Positions 8,566 to 52,978 are shown, counted from the stretch's first letter. The stretch is DNA of 64,000 nt from a virus (IMGVR_UViG_3300029998_000014); one strand, 5' to 3'. Numbers and translations are program-made. The notes: generated by a model not told the origin, from the sequence alone.

Positions 8566-9066
8566 CTATTCTTTAGGGAATTCTAGTTCTTGTTGAACTT
8601 TTTTTGGTGGAACTTTATAGTTCATTGGCATCATTGTTATAATACCATTTCTTACATACATCTCAGCACAACGATTATCATCATCAAATGCCATAAGAAT
8701 GTCATACTCTTCTTGAAGCTTCTTTAAAGTAGCTTCTTTCGATAAATATGATTTAGTATAGTCTATACCTTGTTTCATGAATAATTTATATTCATCATCA
8801 TACAGAAGTCCTCCGTCTTCTAGTTTTTCAATTAACCATGCTTCGGTTTGAGGTCTTACTCGTTCAGGTCTCCCTGTAACAAGTAAAATCATATATCCTT
8901 GCATAGCTAGTGATTGCATTAGTTCACCAACACTTTTAATAAGCACGTCACCTGATAAATCACTCCAATCAAAAGGACTTCTGTTAGTATGATACAAAGT
9001 AGTAAGATCTAAATCAAAGATTACTGCTTTTTCTTTTTCCATAAGTTTTTTAAACTTGGTTTCCAT
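8566..9066 (-). CDS. HAD-superfamily phosphatase
   Basis: HAD motif I in FDLDLTT. Downstream LLVTGRP and FDDD are assigned here as HAD motifs III/IV (less certain than the DxDxT motif). Confidence 0.6.
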   Translation of the reverse strand: METKFKKLMEKEKAVIFDLDLTTLYHTNRSPFDWSDLSGDVLIKSVGELMQSLAMQGYMILLVTGRPERVRPQTEAWLIEKLEDGGLLYDDEYKLFMKQGIDYTKSYLSKEATLKKLQEEYDILMAFDDDNRCAEMYVRNGIITMMPMNYKVPPKKVQQELEFPKE

Positions 9067-9297: not shown

Positions 9298-10728
9298 TTA
9301 TTTACTTGTTTTTAAATCGGCTTCAAGATAACTCTTAGCAATAGTGCGAATTTCTGTCCAATGTTGATCTCTCATTAATTTACCATTACGATAAACTATT
9401 TCAAGTTCATCAGCATATCCATTATTAATACCATATTGTTCTTTAGAACTTTCGATAGTAATGAATTCTGATCCGGCTTTATGAAGTTTCAAAATACCAG
9501 CTTTTGAAGCTTTAGTCATATCTCCTTTAGGAGATTTACGAATATCTTTTGATTCTCCATCAATTACAGCGAAACAGCATTTTACTGCCCAACGATCTGT
9601 ATCTCTGGTCAATCCTTCAACAAGCAAACCACCACCTGAACCAACCGCAAAGTTTTCACAAGACCAACCAGTTTTAATGTATTCTGAATAAATATCAACG
9701 ATTGAATTTTCATTCATACCATCTCCTTGAATTAAGCCTACATTATGATTAATTACTCTGTAATCTACTTCATTTAAGTGATATCCAAAAATATTACCAA
9801 GCATTTCAGAATACTTAATCATATTTGTTAACGGAACACCAGAATCCGGACGTAAAATAGTTCTACCTGGACGTGCGATAATACGTTGTTTGATTGCTTC
9901 TGAACCAATAACATTTTTAATGAAATTAGTATCATCATAAGAATCAATAACAATTGATACCATAGCATCGTCACCAGCGCGATCAAATTGAGCATTGACA
10001 TAATCAAATTCTCCCTGACCAGGACCAAATACAGTTGCTACTGAGTGTTCAGTTGCCCATACAGATTTTCCTACGGTTGCATCTCCGTAATAGTCTTCAA
10101 TAAATTCCATTGCTGGAACATTATCAGAACCATCAGAAAAGATTAAAGCAGCAGAACCACCTAAACAAGCAGCTTCATGACCTTGAGCACCTCTTAATCC
10201 AAAATCATTAACTACATAATCCAACATAGCGTTGTTAGTAGAGATTTTGAATGATGGAGTAATACCTTTATGAATATTATACATACGAGTAGCAACGGCA
10301 ACTGGATACCAATTCCACATTAACCAAGGTTCGAAGTGACTAACCATTGGTGCAAACCACTCTTCAGTAGCTTCAATTGTATAACAAACATTACCAGTTG
10401 GAACAACAGTTCCTTCTTTTACAGCTTTGATTTCTAAAGGATAATATCCTAAATCGCGAACTTTTTCCCAAATTTCTTGAGGGAAATAACCAGGGTTACC
10501 AAAAGTATTTAAACTTCTACGAGCACCACGTTCAATATCTTCATTAGTGACAACAGTCATAAAATATTCTTTTATGAAATATTGTATACCATAGAAAACA
10601 ATATGAGAGTGTTGACCTCCTACACGAGGTTCTCCATAAGACATAAGTCTTGTCAATCCCGAAGGACGTTGCGTCCAATGCACAAATTTATATGCATCAG
10701 TTGCGGTTGTTGGATGAAATTTTGGCAT
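9298..10728 (-). CDS. nadV: Nicotinamide phosphoribosyltransferase (NAMPT/NadV)
   Basis: 476 aa. Motif DFGLRGAQGHEAACLGGSAALIFSDGSDNVPAM aligns with the NAMPT active-site region [33 protein letters not shown]. Confidence 0.85.
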   Translation of the reverse strand: MPKFHPTTATDAYKFVHWTQRPSGLTRLMSYGEPRVGGQHSHIVFYGIQYFIKEYFMTVVTNEDIERGARRSLNTFGNPGYFPQEIWEKVRDLGYYPLEIKAVKEGTVVPTGNVCYTIEATEEWFAPMVSHFEPWLMWNWYPVAVATRMYNIHKGITPSFKISTNNAMLDYVVNDFGLRGAQGHEAACLGGSAALIFSDGSDNVPAMEFIEDYYGDATVGKSVWATEHSVATVFGPGQGEFDYVNAQFDRAGDDAMVSIVIDSYDDTNFIKNVIGSEAIKQRIIARPGRTILRPDSGVPLTNMIKYSEMLGNIFGYHLNEVDYRVINHNVGLIQGDGMNENSIVDIYSEYIKTGWSCENFAVGSGGGLLVEGLTRDTDRWAVKCCFAVIDGESKDIRKSPKGDMTKASKAGILKLHKAGSEFITIESSKEQYGINNGYADELEIVYRNGKLMRDQHWTEIRTIAKSYLEADLKTSK

Positions 10729-11175
10729 TTATTTAAATTTATTTTTAAATTCTTCAATACTATTGTATAAAGGAATATTATATTTAGAACATACAATTTC
10801 TATATTACCTTTTCTCCAAAATCCTTCAGGACAAATTACATGTAACTTTTTAGAAGTTGCATATAAACCTAATTCTAATAAACTAATTGGAGACATAGTT
10901 TTAGGATCAAAATACATAATAATTATATCAGAAAAATCTAATGCGTGTAATTCCCAAGAAACTTGTTGAAAAAATTCAGGATTATCAAAAGATTGAACCC
11001 AAGAACTATCCCAATTATCTCTACGAGGATTAAATATATTAAAATCTTTTTCAAAATATTTTGTCATAGTATCTTGCCAATTTTCAGCTTGACCCATTTC
11101 AATACTACCTGCTAAAAACATAGAAGGTTTATGTATATCTCGTTGATTTATATTATTTGGAGCTTTAATTACCAT
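10729..11175 (-). CDS. Nucleoside 2-deoxyribosyltransferase-like (NDT/DNPH1 fold) protein
   Basis: N-terminal MFLAGSIEMG... motif typical of the NDT-fold family. Sits between nadV and natV. Confidence 0.55.
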   Translation of the reverse strand: MVIKAPNNINQRDIHKPSMFLAGSIEMGQAENWQDTMTKYFEKDFNIFNPRRDNWDSSWVQSFDNPEFFQQVSWELHALDFSDIIIMYFDPKTMSPISLLELGLYATSKKLHVICPEGFWRKGNIEIVCSKYNIPLYNSIEEFKNKFK

Positions 11176-11303: not shown

Positions 11304-11642
11304 TTATAGTTTTATTAATTTAATAAATTTTGAAGTGTCTTGTTTAATAACATCGTGTTGAAATCTTTCATAAAATTTAATATCAACTGCTTCAAATTCA
11401 TGAACAAACCATCCAAATTTTTGAAGTTTAATAATATCTGCTTTAGGAAACCATTGATATAAACCCTCTAATGATTCAGTAACTGATAACCAGCCTACTA
11501 ATTTAGGATCAAAATCCATTTCAAGTTTTGAATTTAAACAAAAATTAAAATCATTATGAATTAATCCTGTAAAAATACCTTTATAATCATACCATAAACC
11601 TTGATGGGTATTTATGTTACATACTCTGTAGTATTTTTTCAT
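11304..11642 (-). CDS. Hypothetical protein
   Basis: 112-aa ORF; overlaps natV by ATGA. Confidence 0.45.
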   Translation of the reverse strand: MKKYYRVCNINTHQGLWYDYKGIFTGLIHNDFNFCLNSKLEMDFDPKLVGWLSVTESLEGLYQWFPKADIIKLQKFGWFVHEFEAVDIKFYERFQHDVIKQDTSKFIKLIKL

Positions 11643-12538
11643 TTTTCAGTATTTTTTAATAAGTCAACTAATAACTTTTTATGTTCTCCAACCAAGATTT
11701 TGTCTAGCTCAGGACCGTATGGGAACCATTTTAAGGCAGCAATATCATCTTGAGGTTGTGGACTACCAAAAGTATATTTACATTTGTATAAATGCGTCAT
11801 AATTTTAGCATCATGTGAATTCTTATATCGCCAATCTTCTACACGTTTTGAACAAACGAATTCAAAGTCAGCAAGTTCAAGACCTGTTTCTTCTCTACCT
11901 TCACGACGAGCAGCAGCTTCATCGGATTCATCAGTAACATCAACAAATCCTCCAACAAAACACCATTCTTTTTCATCAGGTTTTTGACCTAATAGAATTT
12001 CACCTTTTTCATTAAAGATTGCAACATCAACTGTTGAAAATGAGCGGGGATATTGTGAAAAAACCGAATAAATTATACCAGCTCTGAAATCAGATGATGC
12101 TAATATACGTCCGGCAACTTTCTTTCTAATATCTGTTGCAGATATATAGACTTCTGGTTCAAGTTCAGTTGTTTTCCAATTTCCAGTATAATATGGAATA
12201 AACGAATCTTTACCTCCATAAAGAGTAACTGTTCCAGATGGAAAAATATCTCTTACTTTAGTACGAATTTGAGTAGACCATACTTCATTGGATTTACAAT
12301 CAGCAAGTGGTACAATTGAAGATATTCTATTTCTAAAATGTGCTTCGATCATAGCTTTACGGGTAATAAAATCCAATGGATTTCTTTGAGTACCCATTGC
12401 AGATGTAGTTCCTAAGAATAAAATTACCTTTTCGTGGTTTGCAAGAACATGTTCAATTAACTTGATATGTTCAGTATGCAATTCGTGTAGCTGAAATCTC
12501 CCGATAACAACTCCAATTTCTGTTTGAGTTTCGTTCAT
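11639..12538 (-). CDS. natV: Bifunctional NMN adenylyltransferase (NadM-type) + Nudix hydrolase (NatV-like)
   Basis: N-terminus GVVIGRFQLHELHTEH resembles the NadM nucleotidyltransferase motif (GRFQPxHxGH). The C-terminal half has the Nudix box REGREETGLE... Confidence 0.8.
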   Translation of the reverse strand: MNETQTEIGVVIGRFQLHELHTEHIKLIEHVLANHEKVILFLGTTSAMGTQRNPLDFITRKAMIEAHFRNRISSIVPLADCKSNEVWSTQIRTKVRDIFPSGTVTLYGGKDSFIPYYTGNWKTTELEPEVYISATDIRKKVAGRILASSDFRAGIIYSVFSQYPRSFSTVDVAIFNEKGEILLGQKPDEKEWCFVGGFVDVTDESDEAAARREGREETGLELADFEFVCSKRVEDWRYKNSHDAKIMTHLYKCKYTFGSPQPQDDIAALKWFPYGPELDKILVGEHKKLLVDLLKNTEK

Positions 12539-12906
12539 TATGGATTTAAAAATTGTTTTAGCAATTCATCATTTAATATTGTGTCTGAATTATTTGCATA
12601 AAATTCCGCAAAATCAAACATTTGTTGTTTAGTAAATTTAGGAATATTAATAAAATATAATTCTTTAAATTGTTCAAAAGTAATTTCTTCTCCTCTAAGT
12701 TGATCAAATATACCTTGTACAATATCTGATCCAGATCTCGCCTCAAGATTATTTACTACAATAGAAATATCATTACTATCTGAATGTTCTTTAATGTTAG
12801 TTGTGTGTGATCCTACCCATGAACAATTATTTTTAAATATTATTTCTTGAACAAATTTAAATTGATCCCTAGTAAGATGATGTATTTTAAAATTTTCGAT
12901 TATCAT
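12538..12906 (-). CDS. Paralog family B, member 1 (unknown function)
   Basis: N-terminus MIIENFKIHHLTRDQFKFVQEIIFKNNCSW; C-terminus FAEFYANN. Confidence 0.55.
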   Translation of the reverse strand: MIIENFKIHHLTRDQFKFVQEIIFKNNCSWVGSHTTNIKEHSDSNDISIVVNNLEARSGSDIVQGIFDQLRGEEITFEQFKELYFINIPKFTKQQMFDFAEFYANNSDTILNDELLKQFLNP

Positions 12907-13274
12907 AATTTTAAGAAGTCAGTTAATACATCATCTGGAGATGATGCGCCAACTATATTGTTAGTGTAATATTCAGCAAATGCAAGGATTTTCTCTCTAG
13001 ATATACGTAAAGTATTAGCATATTTTTCTTTAAATTGATCATATGTTAATTCTTCTCCTTCAAGACCATCAAATGTACTTTGGGTAACTACTACACCGGA
13101 TCTTAACATACCTTTAGATGTCATACATAAAGTAATAGTATTACTAGGACTAAACATTCTTAAATCTTTATCTAAGCTGCTTCCCCATCCACCACCATCG
13201 CGAAATACCATATTTTGAACAATTTTAGATTGTTCATTATCAAGATGATATATTTTAAAAGGTTTTATTTCCAT
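12903..13274 (-). CDS. Paralog family B, member 2
   Basis: MEIKPFKIYHLDNEQSKIVQNMVFRDGGGW ... FAEYYTNN. Confidence 0.55.
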   Translation of the reverse strand: MEIKPFKIYHLDNEQSKIVQNMVFRDGGGWGSSLDKDLRMFSPSNTITLCMTSKGMLRSGVVVTQSTFDGLEGEELTYDQFKEKYANTLRISREKILAFAEYYTNNIVGASSPDDVLTDFLKL

Positions 13275-13647
13275 TTTTTGGTTTTATAAAGTTATCAAAT
13301 AATTGTTCTATTGTTAATTCATCATTTAAATGATCCATACAATATTTAGCAAAATCAATACAAGTTTGTCTACTTGTTTCACCTTTACCAAAATATCTAA
13401 TTTTAAATTCTTCTAATGTTATTTCAGGATTATCATGATTATGAAAATATCCTCCAATAGTTGCATCACCAGTTATAGTATTATTTAAATAATGATATAA
13501 CCCTTTCCACGAACTACCTTGGCTATCAACAAGATTAACTTCTGATTTACCATTTCTCCATTTTGAACCATTTTGAAATAATAGTTTTTGAACAAATATG
13601 GACTCTTCTGGATTATTTACTCTTATTTTAAAATTCTCATTTATCAT
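13255..13647 (-). CDS. Paralog family B, member 3
   Basis: MINENFKIRVNNPEESIFVQKLLFQNGSKW ... FAKYCMDHLNDELTIEQLF. Confidence 0.55.
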   Translation of the reverse strand: MINENFKIRVNNPEESIFVQKLLFQNGSKWRNGKSEVNLVDSQGSSWKGLYHYLNNTITGDATIGGYFHNHDNPEITLEEFKIRYFGKGETSRQTCIDFAKYCMDHLNDELTIEQLFDNFIKPKNGNKTF

Positions 13648-14032
13648 TTTTCAGATTTAATATATATTCATCATATAATTCTTCAAATGTTTTTTCATCA
13701 TTTAAATGGTTCATACAATATTGTACAAACAAAACATATTTATTTTTTTCTGAATGAATAGAGTCAGTTACATATTTACTACAAAAATCTGCAAATGATA
13801 TTTCATTTTTATCATGTCTATTAAACGATGATGTAGAAGTTATATCAGTAAATCCTCCAATTTTTTTAGTTACAGAATTATATTCAAGTCCATTCCAATT
13901 TATATTTGGATTAGGTCCAAATAAAACTGTTTCTTGACCTTCTCTCCATTTAGCTCCATTAGAAAACAAAGTTTCTTGAACTATTTTATGTTCTCTTTCA
14001 TCTGCAATTTTAATTTTAAAACTTTCAATCAT
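13637..14032 (-). CDS. Paralog family B, member 4
   Basis: Start placed at MIESFKIKIADEREHKIVQETLFSNGAKW ... VQYCMNHLNDEKTFEELY. Confidence 0.55.
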   Translation of the reverse strand: MIESFKIKIADEREHKIVQETLFSNGAKWREGQETVLFGPNPNINWNGLEYNSVTKKIGGFTDITSTSSFNRHDKNEISFADFCSKYVTDSIHSEKNKYVLFVQYCMNHLNDEKTFEELYDEYILNLKNDK

Positions 14033-14393
14033 TTTTCCAATCTTTAAATAGTTCTTGTGGCGTTTTTTCATCATTAAGGTGATCCATGTAATATTCAATG
14101 AATTTAAACATGATATCAGTAGTAATTATAACATTTTTAGTTGAAACATTAAAAATATCATATTTTTCAATAAATTCATCATAAGTAATTTCTTTATGCT
14201 CATGATCATCAAAATGTACATTAGTATTTCCAAAACCAGTCATTTGTTTTGAATGATATCTATAACAAATTCCTTCATAATAAAATGAAGATAAAAATTT
14301 CTCTAATAAACCCATACTACTTAATATTCTCTGAACAGTTTTTATTTGATCAGGATTACTAACTTTCATCTTAAAATTTTCTACTATTTCCAT
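14025..14393 (-). CDS. Paralog family B, member 5
   Basis: MEIVENFKMKVSNPDQIKTVQRIL ... IEYYMDHLNDEKTPQELF. Confidence 0.55.
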   Translation of the reverse strand: MEIVENFKMKVSNPDQIKTVQRILSSMGLLEKFLSSFYYEGICYRYHSKQMTGFGNTNVHFDDHEHKEITYDEFIEKYDIFNVSTKNVIITTDIMFKFIEYYMDHLNDEKTPQELFKDWKND

Positions 14394-14408
14394 TTAATTT
14401 CAATTTAA

Positions 14409-14815
<407 letters not shown>

Positions 14816-14836
14816 GAGTATTTTAAAAAGAACAAC

Positions 14837-15109
14837 CTATCGGTTGTTCTCTCTATGTGCTAATTCTAATTCAAAAAAATCTTGAAGACTTTTATCACAT
14901 TTAATATCACCACGTTGCATTGCTGCAATAATGTTACTAACGTGTTTATCGTCTAAATCAGGAACTTTAACTTTTTTACCAGCTTTAGTTATCCAATTCA
15001 TACGATCTCTATCTTCTAGACTATAAGGTCCAACAGTACTAGCTGTTGCTACACCTTCGAGTAATATAATTTCTTTACTCATGTTCTTTGGATATGGTAA
15101 TAGTTTCAA
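14837..15109 (-). CDS. Hypothetical protein
   Basis: 90-aa ORF. Confidence 0.45.
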   Translation of the reverse strand: MKLLPYPKNMSKEIILLEGVATASTVGPYSLEDRDRMNWITKAGKKVKVPDLDDKHVSNIIAAMQRGDIKCDKSLQDFFELELAHRENNR

Positions 15110-52887: not shown

Positions 52888-52960
52888 ACCTTTGTAGTGT
52901 AATGGTTAGCACACAAATCTTCAAAATTTGTAAGTGTGAGTTCGAGTCTTACCAAGGGTG
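52888..52960 (+). tRNA. Opal-suppressor tRNA, anticodon UCA, tRNA-Trp-derived (tRNA-Trp(UCA))
   Basis: ACCTTTG TA GTGT AATGGTTA GCAC A CAAAT CTTCAAA ATTTG TAAGT GTGAG TTCGAGT CTTAC CAAGGGT G. The anticodon loop is C-U-UCA-A-A. A1-U72, G73, the D loop and the T loop UUCGAGU match the E. coli tRNA-Trp architecture. Confidence 0.9.
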
Positions 52961-52978
52961 CAAAATGATAGAATAAAT

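Follow-up and report, generated by a model that had tools for sequence, protein, structure and literature searches.

Most phage genes are without a known function, and fast-evolving gene clusters that lie beside counter-defense genes are a good source of anti-defense proteins. Tad1, Tad2/DUF2829, Acb2, and the anti-CRISPRs are small, acidic, phage-restricted, and fast-evolving, and their genes are often clustered with other counter-defense genes. The Bro-N/KilA-N multigene families of large DNA viruses and phages were reportedly described by Iyer, Koonin, and Aravind in 2002, and the polyvalent proteins of phages and conjugative elements are said to have been described by Iyer et al. in 2017. 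The NARP2 pathway, composed of Nampt and Nmnat, has been demonstrated experimentally to reconstitute nicotinamide adenine dinucleotide (NAD+) and to overcome Thoeris and DSR2 (bioRxiv 10.1101/2024.02.11.579819). In this report, we describe an array of five small paralogous genes (g1 to g5) in a 64,000-nucleotide stretch of DNA from a virus (IMGVR_UViG_3300029998_000014), which at its full length is referred to as the window. The array is found on the minus strand between a phage transfer-messenger RNA (tmRNA) gene and the genes for NARP2. Each of the proteins is composed of an α/β N-domain of ~85 amino acids (the head) and a two-helix (helix-loop-helix) C-tail of ~40 amino acids. Across related phages the C-tails hold their order while the N-heads change.

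The array resembles in kind other fast-evolving phage accessory clusters, with shuffling in the style of Bro-N/KilA-N, and it fits no named family. In the Bro-N/KilA-N families a conserved N-terminal domain of ~100 amino acids is likewise combined with many shuffled C-terminal modules, with several copies per genome. In the array, however, exchange affects the N-domain while the C-tail stays stable, and the proteins are acidic. No match to Bro-N or KilA-N (PF02498 and PF04383) was found in the five proteins, and neither ranks in the top 25, by number of matches, of the 39 Pfam families hit by 106 relatives. Membership in the SmpB, SspB, Bro-N, KilA-N, and SUKH-type immunity families was ruled out, with no profile match to any of them. 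The array proteins are similar to Tad1, Tad2, Acb2, and the anti-CRISPRs in being small, acidic, phage-restricted, and fast-evolving; no profile match or fold similarity to solved structures was obtained for the sponges of Thoeris, CBASS, and Pycsar (Tad1, Tad2/DUF2829, and Acb2). As in the polyvalent proteins, the N-domain is repeated in long proteins, one of which (P0137, 1029 amino acids) contains ART-PolyVal (PF18760) at an expectation value (E) of 8e-9. The array, in contrast, consists of separate genes for single-domain-plus-tail proteins of ~125 amino acids and not of one giant multidomain protein. The array is in the same gene string and on the same strand as NARP2, with overlapping start and stop codons, but NARP2 is defined by two enzymes and the array proteins are not enzymes of that pathway. 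Nampt and Nmnat are encoded together by the neighboring genes, and the array proteins have neither domain. The N-domain itself corresponds, by profile matches, to phrog_17589, a PHROG without a function attached, for which no mention was found in the papers searched. The phrog_17589 profile covers the N-domain only; the helix-loop-helix tail and the five-gene array belong to this jumbo-phage group alone. As far as our searches show, the tail, the array, and the pattern of fixed tails and swapped heads are undescribed.

The five open reading frames (ORFs) of the array are true paralogous genes (Table 1). The original prediction of five head-to-tail paralogues of about 120 amino acids was found to be correct; the proteins are 122 to 131 amino acids in length, and their alignment gave significant similarity. 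The blastp E-values, computed at a database size of 20,000 residues, are 1.7e-23 for g1-g2, 1.1e-22 for g3-g4, 4e-13 for g3-g5, 3e-11 for g4-g5, and 4e-9 for g1-g3, and the weakest pair is g1-g5 at 0.011. A hidden Markov model (HMM) built from the five proteins recovers each member at E 1e-44 to 1e-55 (g5, 2e-44). The same model identified no other member at E < 0.05 among the 507 stop-to-stop ORFs of at least 40 amino acids in the window, and a broader N-domain HMM likewise found no extra copy of either module within the 64 kb. For g4 the ATG giving MIESFKI was chosen as the start, since it agrees with the family N-terminus and with the start chosen by gene callers on other contigs; the TTG at 14098, a mechanical start, only extends the frame upstream. 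Array proteins that are identical or nearly so are found again on as many as 36 contigs of several projects, and all five reading frames are intact across many independent contigs. Chance ORFs in AT-rich DNA (the GC content of the array is 25%, versus 30% for the window) are ruled out by this conservation, by purifying selection on the C-modules, and by confident structure models. Successive genes overlap by 8, 11, 20, and 4 nucleotides, and g1 overlaps the NMNAT-Nudix gene by 1 nucleotide; the overlaps of 20 to 35 nucleotides given in the original prediction are wrong. The N-terminal motif that had been proposed for all five proteins (ENFKI...VQ..LF.NG..W) is found in g1 to g4, whereas g5 has ENFKM...VQ but no NG..W loop. 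The proposed C-terminal HLNDE motif stands out sharply in g3, g4, and g5, and g1 and g2 have degenerate forms of it.

The evolution of the array was followed in related contigs that are 80-98% identical to the window in the flanks. Five related lineages were sampled, plus the distant L019. The window has five copies, four are found in L003, L006/L007, and L016, and two in L019; copy number thus varies, and at least four copies are kept in all five related lineages. With module types defined at 60% identity, the order in the window is N4C4-N7C5-N5C1-N2C2-N8C3. The corresponding orders are N4C4-N1C5-N5C1-N3C3 in L006, N6C4-N1C5-N5C1-N3C3 in L007, and (N6C4)-N1C1-N2C2-N3C3 in L003, where the first gene was not typed by the junction-motif script and was assigned as N6C4 by eye after L007_1 (C-module 72% identical to that of g5). 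L016 contains four further N types and keeps C3 in its last gene.

A 60-nucleotide sliding identity profile gives 82-98% in the flanks and tails and 33-57% in the interiors of the heads, with abrupt edges at which nucleotide identity drops from 90-98% to the low values; this pattern indicates allelic (cassette) replacement and not gradual drift. Replaced N-modules of 23-42% amino acid identity stand beside C-modules of 72-89% identity. The N-module of g5 is swapped for an unrelated type in L003 and L007 (23% amino acid identity) next to a C-module that is at least 72% identical. In g4 the N interior (13731-13970) has a nucleotide identity of 43-57% to L006 and the C-module one of 93-97%, and g1 shares 34% identity with L006_4 and L003_4 in its N-module and 78% in its C-module. 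The g2 gene is missing from L006, L007, L008, and L009 and is present in L003 at 85% amino acid identity. In the N1-C1 gene of L003 the head matches that of L006 gene 2 at 97% identity and the tail matches that of L006 gene 3 at 93%, which indicates a product of unequal crossover at the conserved junction sequence EIT(F/L)E(E/Q)F. The changes in copy number that were seen are all losses or fusions at the module junction, and none is a fresh duplication. Replaced N-modules still hold the conserved scaffold residues.

The ratios of nonsynonymous to synonymous substitution rates (ω) were determined pairwise by the Nei-Gojobori method on 50-75 codons each, and are indicative only. They are 0.10-0.17 for the flanking genes, 0.16-0.23 for the tails, and 0.53-0.81 for heads that are still orthologous; between g3 and L006_3 the values are 0.81 for the N-module and 0.18 for the C-module. 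The C-modules thus appear to be under purifying selection as strong as that on the flanking enzymes. Values of ω above 1 were obtained only between non-orthologous, replaced N-modules and for none of the true orthologues. Heads that evolve faster than the flanks or are replaced outright are what would be looked for in an arms-race array, and both were found here.

The description of the array as rapidly duplicating did not hold. The paralogues are 20-37% identical in amino acid sequence, and the best nucleotide similarity between any two in the window is 77% over 100 nucleotides, so they are old and not recently duplicated. A recent tandem duplication as the origin of the array is ruled out by this low identity. 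In L015 the second array gene is frameshifted into two overlapping ORFs (2027-2227 and 2206-2430, within L015 2027-2430), from either pseudogenization or an assembly error. The distant L019 (41-1548) has a full-length member of 117 amino acids and a head-only copy of 93 amino acids directly upstream of a stand-alone 160-amino acid Nudix gene and a HAD phosphatase. The stand-alone Nudix neighbor indicates that the Nudix link reaches beyond the NMNAT-fused form.

The structure of g3 was predicted with AlphaFold2 from a 106-sequence alignment with a mean predicted local distance difference test (pLDDT) score of 88.7 and a predicted TM-score (pTM) of 0.67. An independent run for g1 gave a pLDDT of 90.7 and a pTM of 0.70, and the topology matches that of g3. 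The order of elements in both models is a strand at 6-9, a helix at 13-25, a short strand at the G..W turn, a β-hairpin at ~47-61, a short helix, a strand at EIT, a helix at 77-86, a lower-confidence linker, and helices at ~93-106 and 112-121. The positions conserved across the family are mostly hydrophobic or structural (F6, V19, F24, G27, W30, F68, F81, and Y85), together with K7, Q20, E75, and T77, and no catalytic signature was found among them. The conserved blocks are residues 1-30 and 75-85, and residues 31-67 are variable. The array proteins are mildly acidic, with isoelectric points (pI) of 4.95-6.07 and net charges of -2 to -7; across the family the median pI of the N-domain is 5.5, and 75% are below 7. 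The C-terminal helices (for example, EQLFDNF, EELYDEY, and QELFKDW) may bear a loose likeness to the acidic-hydrophobic, clamp-binding tails of T4-type phage proteins. These helices are placed by AlphaFold2 in a packed helix.

No Pfam family was matched by the five proteins at E ≤ 1, and scans of Pfam, NCBIfam, and PADLOC with these proteins and up to 106 relatives gave nothing that covers the N-domain or the tail. PADLOC returned eight matches, each with one member of the 106 (E 0.0017-0.0088) and with no recurring family. A sequence-profile search of the PDB gave only chance-level matches at E ≥ 0.18, and a match to RemA was not recovered with the g1 model. A Foldseek search of BFVD gave eight matches at E ≤ 1e-3; three are nameless in the lookup tables, and all of the named ones are uncharacterized phage proteins. 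The named ones include proteins from phages of Rheinheimera (Barba19A), Pseudomonas (phiPMW), Nonlabens (P12024S), Leuconostoc (1-A4), and Acinetobacter, several with two copies, and the N-domain-sized alignments have a TM-score of ~0.5 normalized to query length.

The N-domain is much more widespread than the array. A profile search of 1.84 billion representatives identified 177 proteins at E ≤ 1e-3, most of which match profile positions 1 to ~90 only. The full head-plus-tail architecture was found in ~26 proteins in 5.8 billion, all from this jumbo-phage group. Among the 168 relatives in hand, 26 have the full head and tail, 48 the N-domain alone, 67 the N-domain at the N-terminus of a longer protein, 19 two or more N-domains, and 8 some other arrangement. 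The phrog_17589 profile matches g3 at 2.2e-7 and g5 at 0.0089, with a weak match to g4 at 0.097 and no direct match to g1 or g2. It is also matched by 61 of the 106 relatives of up to 200 amino acids (best E 2e-13) and by 46 of 85 multidomain relatives. Since these 106 relatives are recovered by the array's own profile, all five proteins are joined to phrog_17589. The annotatable fusion partners are a DUF3310/T7 gp1.7-type nucleotide kinase (n = 4), a dATP/dGTP pyrophosphohydrolase (n = 1), and ART-PolyVal (n = 1). DUF3310 is absent from the five array proteins (Pfam, E ≤ 1) and follows the N-domain in four distant relatives, such as P0024.

A protein of 1647 amino acids with six repeats of the N-domain (L020 5453-11569) is encoded directly after a gene for an S-adenosylmethionine (SAM) lyase (PF23780), near a YpsA/SLOG gene and the contig end; this neighborhood resembles an early anti-restriction region. 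The Barba19A homologue heads a cluster of small genes past a divergent intergenic region. A hand-made consensus of the N-domain matched 130 of 50,697 cultured-phage records, 115 of which are from one Rheinheimera phage population. The pattern PEQS[KRA]IVQ found no relative in 185,579 representative genomes of bacteria and archaea; it is narrow, so this is only weak evidence against prophage carriage. Scans of the IMG/VR and JGI metagenomes each added one distant locus.

The predicted contact with a tmRNA gene was confirmed by ARAGORN and Rfam, and the start of g5 is 13 nucleotides past the tmRNA 3' end. The tmRNA gene is also upstream of the array in L003, L004, L005, L006, L015, and L016, with a gap of 13-30 nucleotides in every relative possessing both. 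A Nudix gene directly follows the array in L006-L009, L016, L017, and L019, and the order tmRNA-array-Nudix is kept in three lineages. In the window, the genes after the array on the same strand are, in order, those for NMNAT-Nudix, two small ORFs, a deoxyribosyltransferase-like protein, Nampt, and a HAD/PNKP-type phosphatase. In L003 the NMNAT-Nudix gene is cut to 85 amino acids (L003 5037-5294) and Nampt is gone, yet the tmRNA and four array genes are retained; the array is therefore not an obligatory component of NARP2. A terminator-like hairpin is located at the end of the upstream ORF, 10 nucleotides ahead of the tmRNA 5' end, and was not called by a consensus terminator scan, as its 9-bp stem is followed by only four T. 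The same scan found no terminator-like site on the minus strand between the tmRNA and NadV. The hairpin with its T-run and the lack of an internal terminator make it plausible that the tmRNA, the array, and NARP2 are a single transcription unit.

Table 1. Coordinates of the array genes and of neighboring features in the window.
Feature	Position	Strand	Details
g5, paralogue 1	14025-14393	-	122 amino acids; N-module 14160-14393, C-module 14028-14159
g4, paralogue 2	13637-14032	-	131 amino acids from ATG at 14032; N-module 13772-14032, C-module 13640-13771
g3, paralogue 3	13255-13647	-	130 amino acids; N-module 13393-13647, C-module 13258-13392
g2, paralogue 4	12903-13274	-	123 amino acids; N-module 13020-13274, C-module 12906-13019
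g1, paralogue 5	12538-12906	-	122 amino acids; N-module 12655-12906, C-module 12541-12654
Phage tmRNA gene	14407-14815	-	Rfam RF00023 full length, 107 bits (threshold 47); ARAGORN 14409-14815
Terminator-like hairpin	14825-14850	-	AGAACAACC-GATA-GGTTGTTCT then TTTT; read from sequence
Bifunctional NMN adenylyltransferase/Nudix (NatV-like, Nmnat of NARP2)	11639-12538	-	Pfam NUDIX; PDB 2qjt 6.7e-11, 2qjo 3.7e-6
Nucleoside 2-deoxyribosyltransferase-like gene	10729-11175	-	PDB 4mcj at 1e-27
Nicotinamide phosphoribosyltransferase (NadV/Nampt)	9298-10728	-	Pfam NAMPT_N + NAPRTase
HAD/PNKP-type phosphatase	8566-9066	-	same-strand gene string as the array

We propose, with a probability of about 0.4, that the array encodes a panel of non-enzymatic binding proteins within a counter-defense or host-takeover gene string. 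The five small, mildly acidic, soluble, two-module proteins would act through binding and not through catalysis. The scaffold of the N-domain would be formed by β1 (FKI), helix 1 (VQ..LF), the G..W turn, and the closing EITF..F...Y strand and helix, and would present a hypervariable insert of ~35 residues that contains the β-hairpin. Each paralogue would recognize a different target of the host or of a rival element through this insert, and the conserved tail may provide a shared function such as docking or oligomerization. Made from a gene string common to the tmRNA and the NARP2 enzymes, the panel would be part of the counter-defense or host-takeover equipment. Its diversity could arise by recombination between related phages, which would swap N-module cassettes, and by unequal crossing-over at the conserved module junction, which would fuse or delete copies.

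We count in favor of this proposal the real genes, the shared fold without a catalytic signature, the mobile domain, the fast heads and their cassette replacement, the conserved context, the occurrence of other family members in accessory regions, and the acidic charge. No profile or fold match was obtained to a characterized anti-defense or host-takeover protein, so the anti-defense role suggested in the original prediction rests on context and evolutionary pattern. Several points weigh against the binding panel. The adjacency to NARP2 is circumstantial, and L003 demonstrates that the array and NARP2 are separable. No ω above 1 was seen in true orthologues over the 50-75 codons compared, so relaxed constraint may explain the heads. 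The fast turnover also fits superinfection exclusion, inter-phage competition, or simple dispensability, and the role suggested for the C-tail is a guess. A more specific form of the proposal, which we consider doubtful, is that the N-domain is an unrecognized phage recognition module with a fold absent among solved structures, and that fixed tails with exchangeable heads retarget an inhibitor panel against host immune or nucleotide/NAD-directed factors. Such a system would parallel, at the protein level and in intracellular counter-defense, the cassette swapping of receptor-binding proteins.

The main rival to the binding panel is suggested by the fusion partners and the conserved Nudix synteny, and it assigns to the N-domain a nucleotide or NAD-derived ligand. 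The array proteins would then be sensors, regulators, or sponges of nucleotide/NAD metabolism that might buffer or sequester ADP-ribose-type or signaling nucleotides, or regulate the neighboring Nudix/NMNAT enzyme. All of the annotatable fusion partners handle nucleotides or NAD, but an annotated partner is present in only 6 of ~86 multidomain relatives, and no phage domains are easier to annotate than those of nucleotide enzymes. The small size of the proteins fits that of known sponges; however, neither in fold nor in profile do they resemble any sponge protein solved in the PDB, which presumably holds the structures of Tad1, Tad2, and Acb2. In three lineages, the distant L019 among them, a Nudix gene directly follows the array or its relatives, and g1 overlaps the NMNAT-Nudix start by 1 nucleotide, but in L003 the array persists without NARP2. 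The family has no conserved nucleotide-binding motif, the only polar or aromatic candidates being Q20, K7, E75, and W30, and the wholesale replacement of the insert is easier to reconcile with protein targets that shift than with a small ligand that stays the same. We consider a ligand-binding function to be unlikely.

The mosaicism could also reflect no more than recombination in a plastic region, with the array as dispensable, weakly selected cargo made up of leftover paralogues or of genes for inter-phage competition or superinfection exclusion. The array persists through the loss or fusion of copies, the L015 copy is split by a frameshift, the GC content of the array is below that of the window, and the neighborhood shows insertion of an intron with a homing endonuclease and loss of NARP2. 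This explanation is quite unlikely, given that ω for the C-modules is comparable to that for the flanks, the five frames are intact on many independent contigs, at least four copies are kept in all five related lineages sampled, and the scaffold residues are retained even in replaced N-modules. A role as nucleic-acid-binding regulators of phage or host gene expression, analogous to Bro-N/KilA-N, would account for an N-terminal domain of ~85 amino acids that is joined to varied C-terminal regions, is present in several copies per genome, and takes part in domain shuffling. We judge such a role improbable: the proteins are acidic, as are three-quarters of the N-domains in the family, the RemA match failed to recur with the g1 model, and Pfam gave no match to Bro-N, KilA-N, helix-turn-helix, or other DNA-binding families at E ≤ 1. 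The proteins might instead be partners of the tmRNA, acting in trans-translation or tag-directed proteolysis as adaptors or modulators with an SspB-like variable head and docking tail. The conserved adjacency to the tmRNA and the resemblance of the variable-head, conserved-tail layout to an adaptor are in keeping with this idea. It is nevertheless highly improbable: neither Pfam nor the PDB gave any similarity to SmpB, SspB, or Arf in sequence or fold, the L019 members stand beside a Nudix gene on a 3.5-kb contig with no tmRNA, and most N-domain proteins of other phages are not encoded beside a tmRNA gene.

The N-domain merits a curated family entry, since it occurs in at least 177 clusters at 50% identity, all of them without functional annotation. 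The candidate family offers a confident predicted fold without a solved relative and a clear split between scaffold and variable insert, and the natural swaps among related phages point to the part that is likely to carry specificity. If the heads bind host defense or metabolic proteins, as in the binding panel proposed above, the array would provide a set of natural binders and a case of intracellular inhibitors that are diversified by cassette exchange. If they bind NAD-derived or nucleotide ligands instead, the NAD+ counter-defense toolkit would be extended beyond enzymes.

The two PDB entries matched by the product of the nicotinamide mononucleotide (NMN) adenylyltransferase/Nudix gene, 2qjt and 2qjo, are both NMNAT or NMNAT-Nudix structures, and a tblastn search with NadV matched annotated phage Nampt genes at 35-38% identity. 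The NAD module of the window is broader than NARP2, as it adds the deoxyribosyltransferase-like gene, the phosphatase, and, further on, a faint match to the NMN transporter PnuC (L001 17931-18146). Phage phosphatases and PnuC/NadR have been tied to NAD counter-defense in recent papers. The window also contains 11 tRNA genes plus a UGA-reading tRNA and genes for ribonucleotide reductase, a GroEL-like protein, glutathionylspermidine synthase, and CobS-like AAA proteins. A megablast of the locus against the 50,697 phage records gave no match, and the same sequence is present on metagenomic contigs of up to 213 kb. Together with the identity of at most 38% for Nampt, this points to an uncultured jumbo-type phage, known from metagenomes only.

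The center of the tmRNA gene (14451-14630, minus strand) is 67-78% identical to L006/L007, against 92-98% at both ends, and ARAGORN predicts GNKTISFARTAFMAAA as the tag peptide. An insertion of ~758 bp splits the tmRNA gene of L006 and of L009 close to the 3' end of the gene, at the equivalent of ~14422 in the window (L006 3609-4753). The insertion holds a group I intron (Rfam RF00028, 89 bits, L006 3979-4210) and an ORF for an HNH endonuclease on the opposite strand (L006 4134-4658), and it looks like a mobile intron in the phage tmRNA gene. The ARAGORN call of the tmRNA is lost in L006 and L009 at the insertion, which the window and L003 do not have.

No Shine-Dalgarno-like sequence was found in the 30 nucleotides before the starts at 14393, 14032, 13647, 13274, 12906, 12538, and 11642, and the leaders of these seven starts are A-rich (...aaaa ATG). 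The lack of Shine-Dalgarno sequences, with the GC content of 30%, is a hint of a host that does not rely on Shine-Dalgarno pairing, such as a member of the Bacteroidota. There is no sign of recoding in the window: the long ORFs are intact under code 11, and the stops of the 32 longest frames include 28 TAA and 2 TGA. ARAGORN reports a 'tRNA-SeC' of 74 nucleotides with the anticodon TCA at 52888-52961 on the plus strand; it is too short for a typical selenocysteine tRNA and may be a UGA-reading suppressor. The tRNA-Tyr of 90 nucleotides that ARAGORN reports at 24-113 on the minus strand has the unusual anticodon ATA and may be a miscall or an atypical tRNA.

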